The position numbers were made by a program, and so were the translations under genes. The notes beneath the pieces are model-generated. The model had not been told where the DNA came from. It saw only the letters and a program-made list of their open reading frames with translations, and did not search any database. A stretch of 63,658 nt of DNA, counting the filler, from Syncephalis fuscata S228 (lineage: Eukaryota > Fungi > Zoopagomycota): assembly GCA_025786725.1 (NCBI GenBank). It is 4 parts of 4 records of this genome, joined end to end, with 100 filler letters (N's around TTAATTAATTAA, not from the genome) between each part and the next. Parts side by side here need not be neighbours in the genome. Positions count along the whole stretch, not along the records: positions 1 to 29,889 come from JAHLTZ010000090.1; positions 29,990 to 46,389 come from JAHLTZ010000203.1; 2 more parts are not named here. The stretch is one strand, 5' to 3'. Of the stretch, positions 17,305 to 40,832 are shown one piece after another (position 1 is the stretch's first letter; the number at the start of each line of letters is the position of its first letter).

Positions 17305-19347
17305 TTATTCTGTATTTACAAATAAAAATATTATATGGTACATAATTAATTTATACTCTACTAATATAATACTACTTACTGCCTATTAGTATTAAGTTGT
17401 TGATACACATGGTGCATAACATGTGGTTAGTGCGTAATTAATTAATATATAATACAACCTACATTCATCTAATATTAATTAGTTGATGGATACAGTAAAT
17501 AGCATGTAGTTAGTGAGTAACCAGTTAGTATACAATATAGCTTACCTTCTATTGATATTAATTTATTGCCGCACACATTACATGGTGTATAATCAGTGCA
17601 TAGTTAGTTAGTACATAATACAACTTACTGCCTATTAATATTAAGTTGTTGATGCATATAATACATGACACAATCAATGCATAATTAATTAATACACACC
17701 ATAACTTACATTCTATTATATTAAACAATTAATGCAATTAGCAAATAACATAGTTAATGTATAGTCAGTTAATATACAATACCACTTACCAGCTATTTAT
17801 ATTAAACAATCGGTACAGTCAGTCAATATTATAGTCAATAAGTAGCCAGTTAATATGCAGCACAACTCACCGCCTGTTGGTATTAAGTTGTTGATTTATA
17901 CAGTAAATGGCATGTGGTTAGTACATAGTCAATTAATACAGAATTTCACATACAATCTATTAATAAGGTTGTTGATGTATACAGTATATAGCACATAATT
18001 AGTGTATAGTTAGTTAATATGCAGTGTTACTTACTTTCTATTGATATTAAATAATTGATATAATCAGTAGATAGCACATAATTAGTGCATAGTTAGTTAA
18101 TATTTAATGTTACTTACGACCTATTATATTAAATTGTTGATTTATACAGTACATGGCATGCAATTAGTAAATATTCAATTAATACATAATACAACTTACG
18201 ACCTATTATATCAAGTTGTTCATGCACACAATACATAGTACATAATTAGCTAGTAGCCAATTAATACACAACATAACTTACGAACTATTAATATTAAGTT
18301 GTTGATACACACAGGACATGGTATATAGTTAGTGCATAGTCAATTAATGCGCAATACTACTTACTCTCTATGGTATTAAGTTGTTGATAAACACAATACG
18401 TGACACAATCAGTGAGTAGTCAGTTAACATACAATGTTGCTTACGCGCTAATATATTAAGTTATTAATATACACAATACATGGCACATAATTAATACATG
18501 ATTAGTTAATATACAATGCTACTTACCGCCTATTAATATTAGGTTATTAATATATACAATGCATGATATATGATTAGTTAATACTCAATTAATATATAAT
18601 ATAACCTACATTCTATTAATATTAATTTGTTGATATACACGGTGCACAATATAAATTAGCACACAGTTGGTTAATACACAATACTACTTACTCTCTATGG
18701 TATTAAGTTATTGATACACATAGTGCATGGTATAGAATTAGTGCATAGCCGATTGATATACAATGTTACTTACCGCCTATTAATATTAAGTTGTTAATAC
18801 ACATGGTGCGTAACATATAATTAGTGAATATCAATTATTATATAATACAACTTGCATTTAGCTAATATTAATTAGTTGATGGACACAGTACATAATATAT
18901 AATTAATGTATATTCAATTAATATACAATACAACCTACCAGCTATTGATTTGTTGATGCATACAGTGCATGACATATAATTAATGAATAGAAATTTAATG
19001 CACAGTACAACTTACGATCTATTATATTAAATAATCGGTACAGTCAGTAAATAGCATAGTTAATATATAGTCAATTAATATACACCACAACTTACCCTCT
19101 ATTAATATTAAATAATTGATACAATTAATAAATAGCATGTGATTAGTGCAGTCAATTAATATACAATATCACATACGAGCTATTATAATAATTATTTAGA
19201 AATACCGTTAGTAAATAAAATGCCATATCATATTCATTGTTATTGCAGCATACCACGACGAACTAAGGCTGGTTTAGCATCCACCATGGCCGTAGCGGCT
19301 ATCAAAGCCACAACGACGATGCAAACGACGGCAATGGAAAGCTTCAT
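17305..19347 (-). CDS. Microexon gene A: secreted Cys-rich prepropeptide (57 aa) from 25 exons, 23 of them 3- or 6-nt microexons
   Basis: Exon 1 19347-19254 encodes MKLSIAVVCIVVVALIAATAMVDAKPALVRR plus G. Microexons (lowest + coordinate): CTC 19177, AGG 19096, ATC 19016, CTG 18939, CTAAAT 18856, GCG 18774, AGA 18692, AAT 18610, GCG 18527, CGC 18445, AGA 18365, TTC 18282, GTC 18200, GTC 18118, AAA 18035, ATT 17954, GCG 17871, CTG 17790, AAT 17710, GCA 17629, AAG 17546, ATGAAT 17463, GCA 17380. Last exon 17309-17305 is AA+TAA. Each is flanked by YAG and GTAAG/GTAGG/GTATG/GTGAG (one GCAAG). Joined frame is open: AQDPAKCEKCAQIRRQNCAECKDECK*. Confidence 0.86.
17310..19253. repeat. Diverged ~82-bp tandem array; each unit is one intron plus one microexon of gene A
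   Basis: On the + strand, CTTAC-NNN-CTA-type junctions recur every 77-83 nt. Confidence 0.93.
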
Positions 19348-19482
19348 GGTGATATTGATTTGTTAAGACAAACAAATAAAAGGATAGTAGAGTGTGGTTG
19401 ATATAGAGTGAAGAGTAGTGCGTGTATAGCAAGAAGTAAAGTGTGATAATGTCATTACAATTAGCTGTGTGTATTTTGTGGG

Positions 19483-19491
19483 CTATTTAAA
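19483..19491 (-). promoter_or_regulatory. Putative TATA-like box of microexon gene A
   Basis: TTTAAATAG ~140 nt upstream of the ATG, conserved at the equivalent position of gene B (40970-40978). Confidence 0.4.
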
Positions 19492-37680: not shown

Positions 37681-38452
37681 TTGTATTTAATATTGCTACC
37701 GTTGTTGCTGCTTATAGATATTAAAATAAAAAATAACATAAAGATAGATCTTGTTGCTTTATAATAATTATAAATTAACGACAACCATTAAATAATTATA
37801 GCAAACTTTCCATTATGACAATGTTTAAATGTATTATAGCAATAACTTTTATTTAACTAATTATCAATATTAGCTAATCATTAATCTAGTACGTTTTATT
37901 AAATTGTACTAATGTATATATGCTGTTGCGACTGAGATCACATATGCTTATAGCAATAAGTTTGTAGGTTCTTGTGATTATTTTAAATAAAATTGATGTT
38001 TACGTTAATTCATTAATTTGCAAATAAACTGAATTGTTACGTTTTTTAAAACCAATAAACATGATATCATTCATAGTATAGCTGCAAATGAATACCACTG
38101 ATTACATTGCTAATATGCATTGTTACAATTTCCAAATTCATAATTACGAGTTGAATAAAAATAAACTGTAAACATGGTTGTGAAAACTTAGTCAATTATA
38201 GCTAAAATAAAACCATATGTTTATTACTACAAGCTAGCATAGTTGAATAGGTACAATTGAATGCAGGTTTGCCAGTAATATAATCGCGCTATTGGTTGAA
38301 AGCGGATAAACCAAAATATTGCTAAAAAGTTGATATGTGAATGGACTGAACGGCAATTGCCAATGGATTTGATTTTTGCCGAATGTATAGCTGGAATGTG
38401 TCAAACTAGTCGTCTAATCACATTGCCAATACCAATGCCTTGAAAAGCCCGG

Positions 38453-40832
38453 TTAGACTGTGTTTATGAATATGCACAACATATCACATCTAGTTAGTGT
38501 ATAAATCAGGAATATATAACATTGCTTACAGACTGGTAATATAAATATTAGGACACAAACAGTGTATGATATATGCTTAGTATAGAAACAATTAATATAT
38601 AATACCGCTTACATGCTATTAATAAAAAATAAACATGCACATTGAATGCTATATGTTTAGAGTATGAAAACTAATACATAATGCCACTTACATGCTATTA
38701 ATGCAAGTTATTAGATACACATAATGCACGATATATATATTTAGCGCATAGTCAGTCAATATGCAATGTCGCTTACGATCTATCATTACAAGATATCAAA
38801 CATACAAGATGCATGGTATATGTTTAGAGCGGATAGTCAATACACAGTTTTACTTACTATCTATTGATACAGGTTATTGGATATGCATAGTTCATATCAC
38901 ATAGTTAGCGTATAGTTAATTAATAGACTGTGTCGCTTACTAGCTGTTAATACAAGTTGTTAAACACACAGATCGTATAATGTATGCTTAGTATATAGCT
39001 AGTGAGTATACAATGCCACTTACAATCTAACAATATAAGGTATTGGCCATACACAATGCATGGCATGTACTTAGCATGTAATTAGTAAATATATAATATC
39101 ACTTACTAGCTATTAATATGTGTATTAAATACACGTGGTTCATGGTATATGTTTAGTATATAGGTAGTTATTATACAAATACACTTACAAACTATTGATA
39201 TAAATTATTAGACACACACAATGCATGGTGTATGTTTAGTATATAGTCACTAATATACGATGCCACTTACTCCCTATCAATACATATTATTAAATATACA
39301 TGGTGCATGGCATATGCTTAATATATAGCTATTGCATACACAATATCACTTACCAGCTATCAATACAGGATGTTGGGCATTATATGCCATGTCATATGTT
39401 TAATGTATAAATAAATGATATACAGTATCACTTACGAGCTATTAATACAAGTTGTCAGACACAGACAGTGTGTAGCATGCGATTAAAGTACAACTCAATA
39501 TACGATTCACTTACAAGCTATTAATCAAAATGATTGAACACACACGATAAATGCCATATATTTAGTGTATAGTTAGGTAATGTACAATGCTATTTACCAT
39601 CTATTAGCACAGATATTGCACACACACGCAATGTATGATATATTAATATTGTATAGCCAATTAACATACAATATCACTTACTTTCTATCGATGCAAATTA
39701 TTAATTATATAATGCACGCCATTTTTTAGTAGATAGCTAATAGTATGCAATGTCACTTACGAGCTAATAATCCAAAGTATTGACCACATATGGCACATAG
39801 TATATGATTAGTATATAGCTATTAGTTATAGAGCGCAACTTACGGGCTACATTGCAAGTTATTAAACACAAACCGTGCATCTTATGTGTTAGTATTAGTT
39901 AATTAGCATGAAATGCCACCTACTGGCTTTGATACAAGTTGTTAGACACGCACAGTGCATAAAATATGTTTAATTTTATAATTAGTTAATACACAATGCT
40001 ATTTACCATCTAGTGACATAAGATTTGAATTATTGTAGCACATTTCATATGTTCAGCACATGGCTGACCAATATGAGATGCCACTTACCAGCTATTAATA
40101 CAAGTTGTTAAAAGTTACAACACATGTCATATAGTTGGCGCATGTCTAGTTAGTATACAATTCCGCTTACCTCCTATCAATAAAGCCATTAGAAATTACA
40201 TCACATGCCATATATTCAGCACATGGCTGCTTAATATAAATACTACTTACCAACTATTAATACATGTTGTTAGGCATAAACAGTGCATGGCATGTAGTTA
40301 AAGCATAGATAGCCAATATACAGTTCACTTACAGGCTGATAATACAAGATATTAAACATATATGGTGCATGGCATGTATTTAATATGTAGATAATAAACA
40401 TACACTGCCACTTACATGCTATTAATACGAGTTAGTAAACACACATCATCACATAGCTTATGCTTAATGTATAGCCAAGTAATATATAACGCTACTTACA
40501 TTCTAATGCTGTTTTATTAAACGCACACATTGCATGATATGTGTTTAGTGTATCATTAATTAGTATATAGTTATACTTACCCACTATTGATGCAAGTTAT
40601 TAGACATACAAAATAAATAGCGTATAATTAGCGCATAAATGATTAGTACATAATGCTACTTACTTTTTATTAGTGTTATTTAGTAATGTGAATAGCGTTT
40701 AACTAAATGAATAACTAGCTTTTGTAATGACAACATACCGCGACGAACTAGGACTAGTGTAGCATTCACCATGGATGTAGTAGCCACAAAAACTACAATG
40801 ATAGTACAAACGGTGGCAATAGAAAGCTTCAT
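38453..40832 (-). CDS. Microexon gene B: secreted Ser/Asn/Pro-rich prepropeptide from up to 29 exons, 27 of them 3-nt microexons
   Basis: Exon 1 40832-40739 encodes MKLSIATVCTIIVVFVATTSMVNATLVLVRR plus G. Microexons: [AAA 40664, acceptor reads TAA], TGG 40581, AAT 40500, CAT 40416, CCT 40333, TTG 40251, GAG 40171, CTG 40089, ATG 40007, CCA 39924, CCC 39844, CTC 39761, AAA 39682, ATG 39598, CTT 39515, CTC 39436, CTG 39354, GGA 39271, TTT 39189, CTA 39107, ATT 39024, CTA 38941, ATA 38858, ATC 38777, CAT 38692, CAT 38613, TCT 38530. Last exon 38457-38453 is TC+TAA. Joined frame is open: (EM or V)ESSFGADATPQNASPGISNSNNPSFF*. Confidence 0.82.
38458..40738. repeat. Diverged ~82-bp tandem array; intron plus microexon units of gene B
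   Basis: CTTAC-NNN-CT recurs every 79-85 nt on the + strand. Units resemble those of array A. Confidence 0.93.

Follow-up and report, generated by a model that had tools for sequence, protein, structure and literature searches.

One-codon exons spliced in genomic order encode a predicted secreted peptide in the fungus Syncephalis fuscata

This analysis concerns two microexon genes, A and B, and an intronless paralog, C, found in a 63,658-nt stretch of DNA (hereafter the window; four parts of four genomic records joined end to end with filler) from Syncephalis fuscata S228 (GenBank assembly GCA_025786725.1), a member of a genus listed as mycoparasitic (PMC13188720). In gene A, the entire mature region of a predicted secreted peptide is written in a chain of exons of one or two codons, and assembled RNA contigs carry these exons joined in genomic order. 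The interpretation we favor, with a probability of about 0.65, is that A is a micro-exon gene whose transcripts are spliced, normally with every exon retained, and that the family to which it belongs diversifies more through changes in DNA than through exon skipping. The original prediction, made from the sequence alone, had proposed that exon skipping and recombination between repeat units edit single residues of the peptide.

Organization of gene A

Tandem Repeats Finder reports arrays of ~82-nt units at 17364-19185 and 38983-40441 in which every unit, on the minus strand, consists of one intron and the three bases after it. When the sequence was scanned for an acceptor, 1-9 nt and a donor, 54 three-base matches emerged on the minus strand vs 14 on the plus strand, and two regular chains take up 47 of the 54. 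Genes A (17305-19347) and B (38453-40832), both on the minus strand, are separate genes of ~2 kb, ~19 kb apart, with other genes in the interval. In agreement with the original prediction, all 49 internal exons of the two genes are symmetric (a multiple of three in length and phase 1-1), and every junction in both genes is in phase 1.

The coding part of the first exon of A spans 94 nt (19347-19254) and is followed by 23 internal exons (21 of 3 nt and two of 6 nt, 75 nt in sum) and by a final exon (17309-17305) that contributes two coding bases and the stop. The 24 introns are 70-80 nt long, 23 of them GT-AG and one GC-AG. When joined, the exons encode 57 residues, namely a leader of hydrophobic character, a brief pro-part that closes with Arg-Arg (RR), and a mature part of 26 residues that, as in B, is encoded wholly by the microexon array. 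The predicted mature peptide of A contains five cysteines, with gaps of 2, 7, 2 and 3 residues, and each Cys codon straddles two successive exons, with one base at the end of the first and two at the start of the second. At least five cysteines appear in just 0.05% of exon-order shuffles (p 0.0005), which ties the order of the exons to the Cys codons; by contrast, an open frame alone is weak evidence because 11% (A) and 28% (B) of the shuffles are open as well. The features of gene A, including the 5′ and 3′ untranslated regions (UTRs), are as follows.

19254..19450, minus strand: first exon, with the 5′ UTR, 31 predicted signal/pro codons ending in RR, and one further base (ATG at 19347; 83% identity to gene C; covered by RNA contigs)
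17310..19253, minus strand: array of 24 paralogous introns and 23 microexons, for a predicted C-X2-C-X7-C-X2-C-X3-C peptide (splicing seen in RNA contigs)
17050..17309, minus strand: last exon and 3′ UTR block common to the family (94% identity to gene C over 239 nt; RNA cover)
18856..18861, minus strand: exon 5 (6 nt), with the GC-AG intron after it and a preceding intron that is 3 nt short at the acceptor (from alignment; a putative acceptor shift; GC donor used in RNA)
17463..17468, minus strand: exon 22 (6 nt), with a short acceptor like that of exon 5 and flanks that share a 22-nt exact tract with exon 5 (from alignment; included in RNA)
18679..18709, minus strand: 31-nt tract that spans exon 7 and has an exact copy four units off, at 18352-18382, spanning exon 11 (permutation p 0.03)

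RNA contigs carry the exons of gene A in order

Public RNA contigs were aligned with the locus at 85% likeness and then, at 96%, with A excluding its first exon (32 contigs). Two sequencing runs were found, neither of which is on record as RNA; run X1 is informative and run X2 thin, with a single alignment. Run X1 behaves as RNA: it shows six GT..AG skips in the gene neighboring A, which we take to be seipin-like, and leaves positions 19518-20265, upstream of A, uncovered. At 85% likeness, at least nine distinct joints connect the first and last exons across an insert of other letters; among the inserts listed, one comes from a different paralog (39 nt, read by hand as 11 residues and then a stop). 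The summed depth on the family UTR and first exon (~1e5, vs ~300 for the neighboring gene) is a poor measure that suggests abundant family transcripts.

At 96% likeness, exactly one contig departs from the last exon at 17309, with a loose part of 96 letters. The joint 17309-19254 has a depth of 969.8 and a side of 21, and the 96 letters are accounted for by the 75 nt of internal exons and the 21 letters of the first exon in this joint; the 30 listed letters of the loose part correspond to exons 23 to 15 in genomic order. Given that the insert is exactly 75 nt long, the contig carries all 23 internal exons of gene A. By letters, 18 of the 24 introns (1-3, 5-8 and 14-24, the GC-donor intron among them) are removed with their neighboring exons joined in genomic order. 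Part-spliced contigs (depth ~4-40) show the removal of introns 1-3, 5-8, 14-16 and 19-20 with the predicted neighbors, and introns 14, 16 and 19 are each removed singly while both adjacent introns are retained, so that each short intron appears to be recognized on its own. Use of the GC donor of the intron after exon 5 is apparent from a loose end at 18939 and from the joint 18611-18939.

Eight of the 10 joints listed at 96% fit ordered inclusion, 17711-17867 fits it with one mismatch, and 18526-19038 is unexplained; the last could stem either from a paralog or from a recombined array. Three of the six loose ends listed, out of nine, match the predicted splicing of A, and the other three have no match in A and are probably paralog-derived. 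No exon-skipping joint in A is found among the 10 joints and these six loose ends, in assembled contigs that collapse small bubbles, drop rare 3-nt variants and cannot show the absence of skipping. In two contigs (depth ~7), exon 8 starts with a different base, which changes Lys to Arg, and one contig has an intron change at 18751; a second allele or a near copy is thus expressed.

Splice-site retention and the consequences of skipping

GT..AG dinucleotides are retained in 23 of the 24 units of A and in 27 of the 28 units of B, whereas intron interiors match the column majority at just 0.77 (A) and 0.72 (B); this excess (binomial p 9e-10 and 8e-15, respectively) is more than drift allows. Symmetry of the exons had been taken to mean that any subset of them keeps the frame. 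This holds for the frame itself but not for the product, since a model with 90% inclusion per exon gives a premature stop in 25% of A products and all five cysteines in 35%. The single skips that create stops are exactly those named at the outset, three of 23 in A (GCG 18774, GCA 17629 and GCA 17380, at 18776-74, 17631-29 and 17382-80) and one of 26 in B (TTG 40251, at 40253-51). In gene A, only four of the 23 single skips keep the five cysteines and their spacing, 10 lose a Cys or introduce a stop, nine more change the Cys spacing, and some skips yield identical products. Thus, exon skipping would be mostly damaging in A. In B, 25 of the 26 single skips stay open, and this gene, to judge from its sequence, tolerates skipping better and could be the place where a splicing library still exists.

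Gene B and the intronless gene C

Gene B comprises a first exon with coding positions 40832-40739, 26 three-nt internal exons, 27 introns and a last exon at 38457-38453. The joined exons encode 58 residues, with a leader and RR-ending pro-part as in A and a mature part of 27 residues that is rich in Ser, Asn and Pro and contains no Cys. The first intron (155 nt) consists of two units (72 + 3 + 80 nt) with one acceptor AG missing. Gene B is likely to be the same kind of gene as A.

40739..40936, minus strand: first exon of gene B, with the 5′ UTR and 31 predicted signal/pro codons ending in RR (ATG at 40832)
40664..40666, minus strand: dead unit inside the 155-nt intron 1 of gene B, with donor and spacing kept and no acceptor AG (from alignment; the unit is presumably skipped)
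38458..40738, minus strand: array of gene B, with 27 introns and 26 three-nt exons, for a predicted mature peptide without Cys (from sequence)
38155..38457, minus strand: last exon (stop at 38455-38453) and 3′ UTR of gene B, 70% like that of A (from sequence)
5857..6424, plus strand: gene C, without introns, with signal/pro-region and UTRs as in A and the coding sequence at 5960-6160 (from alignment; helical hairpin model)

Gene C shares with A a leader of 83% DNA identity and a 3′ UTR of 94% identity over 239 nt. Its mature part (35 residues) has the pattern C-X3-C-X3-C-X8-C-X3-C-X3-C (Cys gaps 3, 3, 8, 3 and 3), which matches the 6C alpha-hairpinin motif exactly, and is modeled as a helix-loop-helix (predicted local distance difference test score, pLDDT, of 84). 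The top match is nigellin-1.1 (PDB 2NB2), with a sequence E of 0.29 and a fold E of 2.1 (TM 0.69), both below significance. We dropped the notion that gene C is a simple retrocopy: ~170 nt upstream of it also align with DNA upstream of A, and there is no poly-A tract. Duplication followed by in-place intron loss, or an intronless ancestor, fit as well as a retrocopy. A 233-nt unit, in ~2.4 tandem copies, immediately precedes gene C (5286-5855); it aligns in part with ~19590-19760, upstream of A, and may be an amplified promoter segment.

A family confined, so far, to Syncephalis fuscata

Protein searches and cluster look-ups recovered 16 leader-bearing proteins from at least 12 contigs, every one of them a hypothetical protein of Syncephalis fuscata; P0008 (long, without the leader) and P0012 (long) were left out of this set. 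The 16 share a leader that is hydrophobic by eye, and their mature parts are mutually unrelated, several being Cys-rich. In all 14 family proteins with RR at positions 30-31, the codon that follows starts with G, as predicted by a phase-1 first intron. The annotated models P0007 and P0017 read into an array-type intron after three microexon residues, which implies that the unit is present at other loci where it is mis-annotated, and that the real peptides are missed in the proteome.

P0007, which joins the first three microexons and then enters intron 4, the same state as one RNA contig piece, lies on the same contig as the ortholog of an F-box gene of the window, five model numbers apart. It is thus syntenic with A and appears to be its counterpart in another strain or haplotype. 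The F-box protein of the window differs from the annotated one by one substitution in 743 residues and a 3-residue indel, and exact look-ups of four window proteins returned none from the protein collection; the window thus probably represents a different strain or haplotype than the annotated proteins. Three of 34 exonic codons differ between P0007 and A, one of them at a microexon, vs one in 743 for the F-box protein (Fisher p 0.0003).

A Pfam search with eight family proteins found nothing at the cut-off, and the best ESM Atlas match (0.84, in plant clusters) is a lead only. The leader DNA pattern has no match in the metagenome contigs searched. A generic pattern of three microexons is found in 84 metagenome stretches, with at least four exons in most of 83 loci; none of these 83 loci matches the family leader or UTR, and three match the A array weakly, in AT-rich DNA. 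A protein scan of 39 chosen loci covered 32 long frames, with many loci lacking a frame of 90 amino acids. It gave ankyrin and/or NACHT-like matches for five frames in five loci (L024, L029, L047, L051 and L076, the last with two frames) and kinase matches for three frames. Four loci (L010, L036, L053 and L054) have 17-29 candidate microexons with 62-89-nt introns, unrelated to the family, and L038 and L072, which are very AT-rich, have microexon-like chains near kinase frames that could be chance matches in AT-rich repeats.

Variation at the DNA level

Introns are 69% alike within the A array, 62% alike within B and 60% alike between the arrays, which points to descent from one unit. The triplets behave differently. 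In A their identity is 0.26 vs 0.258 expected, and that of the intron interior 0.69 vs 0.31; in B the respective values are 0.305 vs 0.272 and 0.60 vs 0.29. Indeed, the A triplets are less alike than the least conserved intron column.

The proposal that unequal crossover or conversion between units adds, deletes or swaps single codons fares unevenly. The units are paralogous, a 31-nt exact tract is shared across the exons of A units 7 and 11 (p 0.03), and neighboring units of A are slightly more alike than others (p 0.02). On the other side, longer block duplications in A are not significant (best p 0.07; the top pairs suggested a duplication of introns 2-6 onto 19-23, which we rejected at this value), no shared exact tract in B is significant (p 0.45), and similarity between intron halves or across exons is uncorrelated in A and weakly correlated within B introns. 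Recombination between units is thus weakly supported by these comparisons. Other routes of change, beyond those originally proposed, are visible, namely point changes within triplets, acceptor loss and acceptor shift. Acceptor loss has one instance, in intron 1 of B; the 6-nt exons 5 and 22 of A, both of which follow an intron that is 3 nt short at its end, would reflect 3-nt acceptor shifts. An element of 80-100 nt flanks A in the same orientation on both sides (16791-16872 and 20116-20215, 81-84% alike), and the two copies could be the borders of a block around A that was duplicated or is mobile.

A proposed history of the family and its alternatives

We propose that the arrays grew by tandem duplication of a single intron-plus-codon unit, and that selection on the peptide may have driven the triplets apart while the introns stayed alike. 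Residues would then change by point substitution, be lost with an acceptor, as in B, and be gained by a 3-nt acceptor shift (exons 5 and 22 of A) or by duplication of a unit. The introns would be recognized one by one, with all exons in the main transcript, as in the heaviest contig path of A and probably also in B, and diversity would lie chiefly between paralogs, where it is seen, and between alleles, where it is seen in part. Cleavage at dibasic sites by Kex2-type proteases is an established step in fungal protein processing. By this route, the signal is predicted to be cleaved and the RR site cut by a Kex2-type protease, with the release of a short peptide that, in several members, is predicted to be a disulfide-held helical hairpin. 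Our guess, from the lifestyle of the fungus and the fold, is that these peptides may act on the host fungus or on competing microbes.

Several observations weigh against this interpretation. The full form of A is the heaviest contig path and not a measured share of the transcripts, and the RNA data come from one run and one condition. Removal of introns 4 and 9-13 is supported through total length only, and no explanation is at hand for two backward joints or for the joint 18526-19038, whose ends are not splice sites (depth 8, side 21). The number of cysteines in the A peptide is odd. Just one of the three differences between P0007 and A falls in a microexon, and the contrast between exonic and intron-read codons (3/34 vs 0/24) is not significant (p 0.26). 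Finally, the low identity of the triplets could equally reflect constraint on, or homogenization of, the introns as opposed to positive selection on the peptide.

An alternative that we find doubtful, and for which some room should be left, is that the locus works as a codon-level construction kit, in which dozens of paralogs, each with a mature peptide written as a string of one-codon exons, form a peptide arsenal of the mycoparasite and are edited by unit recombination, by gain and loss of splice sites, and by skipping on contact with the host, and successful versions are frozen as intronless cDNA copies. Rather unlikely, in our judgment, is a system in which alternative splicing occurs at useful rates and yields many peptides per locus, perhaps restricted to members that lack Cys, as B does, or to times of host contact, as in the micro-exon genes (MEGs) of Schistosoma and the nank genes of Tuber, its two precedents. 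The symmetry of all 49 internal exons and the 25 open skips of B are in its favor, as are the at least nine first-to-last-exon joints in X1, of which only one aligned on A at 96%. Nevertheless, neither the 10 joints nor the six of nine loose ends listed for A contain a skip, and of the 23 single skips of A, four keep Cys and spacing, 10 lose a Cys or gain a stop, and some give identical products. A splicing library is therefore unsupported for A, given the 75-nt insert and part-spliced contigs none of which skips an exon, although skipping may occur at a low level; constitutive splicing, entered in the original prediction as a caveat, has become its best-supported part, with full inclusion seen in the A contigs.

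Alternatively, slippage or unequal crossover may have spread a splice-competent repeat within a small peptide gene that tolerates it, so that the architecture is a burden and not a device for diversification. Such a non-adaptive expansion is improbable in our view. It is consistent with gene C, whose tidy six-Cys motif indicates that introns are not needed for a peptide of this type, with the weak recombination signals, and with the similar chains in unrelated genes, namely the metagenome loci with four or more exons and neither leader nor UTR of the family. It is at odds with triplets that diverge far faster than the flanking introns, with arrays that span the mature peptide only, and with retention of the unit in at least four loci (A, B, P0007 or its locus, and P0017). 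The notion that the arrays are a satellite or an unprocessed relic, with the joined RNA coming from intronless copies elsewhere, gains something from the intronless paralog within the window, and yet neighboring microexons are joined, in many patterns, in contigs whose retained introns are those of A to the letter, and splice dinucleotides are retained near-perfectly. We consider it very improbable overall, and for A the part-spliced contigs largely refute it.

Other genes in the window

Two adjoining predicted secreted proteins on the minus strand (46438-47139 and 47471-48013) are alike to each other and presumably resemble expansin-like (double-psi beta-barrel, DPBB) proteins. Paralogous proteins with multiple membrane spans (2173-2967 and 10555-11406, plus strand) flank gene C, and a predicted secreted kinase-like gene (49713-51459, plus strand) contains 3.5 copies of a 51-nt proline-rich repeat.

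Comparison with known systems

A search of open-access full text found no description of this peptide family or of Syncephalis microexons. Within that literature, a predicted secreted-peptide family in which microexons encode the whole mature region, with a 23-exon chain that is backed by RNA, is new. The codon-sized exon layout itself is not rare, given the 84 metagenome stretches, some of them beside NACHT-ankyrin frames.

Toxin precursors of the conotoxin type combine a conserved signal/pro-region, a dibasic site and a hypervariable, Cys-rich mature part within a multigene family. They resemble the family of A in the leader, the dibasic site and the variable mature part; the mature part of conotoxins is not known to be split into single-codon exons. 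Plant alpha-hairpinins have C-X3-C-Xn-C-X3-C (4C) and 6C motifs, with nigellin-1.1 as an example (PMC11591084). Gene C has the motif of the 6C class and is modeled as a helix-loop-helix, and neither A, with its five cysteines at gaps of 2, 7, 2 and 3, nor B, with a mature part devoid of Cys, has this motif. Since the matches are below significance and the fold is simple, the likeness of gene C to these proteins is likely to be convergence.

The nank (NACHT-ankyrin) family of Tuber melanosporum is reported to have multiple codon-sized exons and alternative splicing (Iotti et al. 2012, as cited in PMC4986451). Like A and B, these are fungal genes of an expanded family with multiple codon-sized exons, but they encode large, intracellular proteins akin to NOD-like receptors (NLRs), whereas in the distant lineage studied here such exons encode the mature region throughout, for a peptide of 26-27 residues that is predicted to be secreted. 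The products of A and B are 57-58 amino acids long, and the eight family proteins searched against Pfam have neither a NACHT nor an ankyrin domain. Moreover, nank genes diversify by splicing, as that source reports, whereas the RNA seen for gene A, in contigs only, shows full inclusion.

The MEGs of Schistosoma have 10-20 exons per gene, mostly of 15 bp (3 or 6 to 81), introns of 0.1-5 kb and documented skipping isoforms, and their range is described in these sources as flatworms only (10.1101/2023.06.21.545858; PMC4350168). With A and B they share small symmetric exons, a parasitic lifestyle, organization as a family, and fast protein evolution; they have a signal peptide, and the hydrophobic leader of A and B is a putative one. 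Small symmetric exons cover the whole mature region in A and B (23 in A and 26 in B, each 3 or 6 nt long), and the introns, at 70-82 nt and 60-69% alike, differ from the long, non-repetitive introns of MEGs. No sequence link to MEG proteins was found, all leader-bearing matches being from Syncephalis fuscata.

Thus, A and B are like nank genes and MEGs in layout and belong to neither group. A series of 23 consecutive exons of 3-6 nt spliced in order is a natural test case for how one-codon exons are handled. Furthermore, because gene finders mis-model this apparently abundant family of short peptides, predicted to be secreted by an obligate mycoparasite, as in the two models that read into an intron, candidate antifungal or host-manipulating peptides are missed. 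The question raised by MEGs and nank genes alike, namely whether diversity comes from a splicing library or from variation in DNA, can be tested here with one short amplicon.

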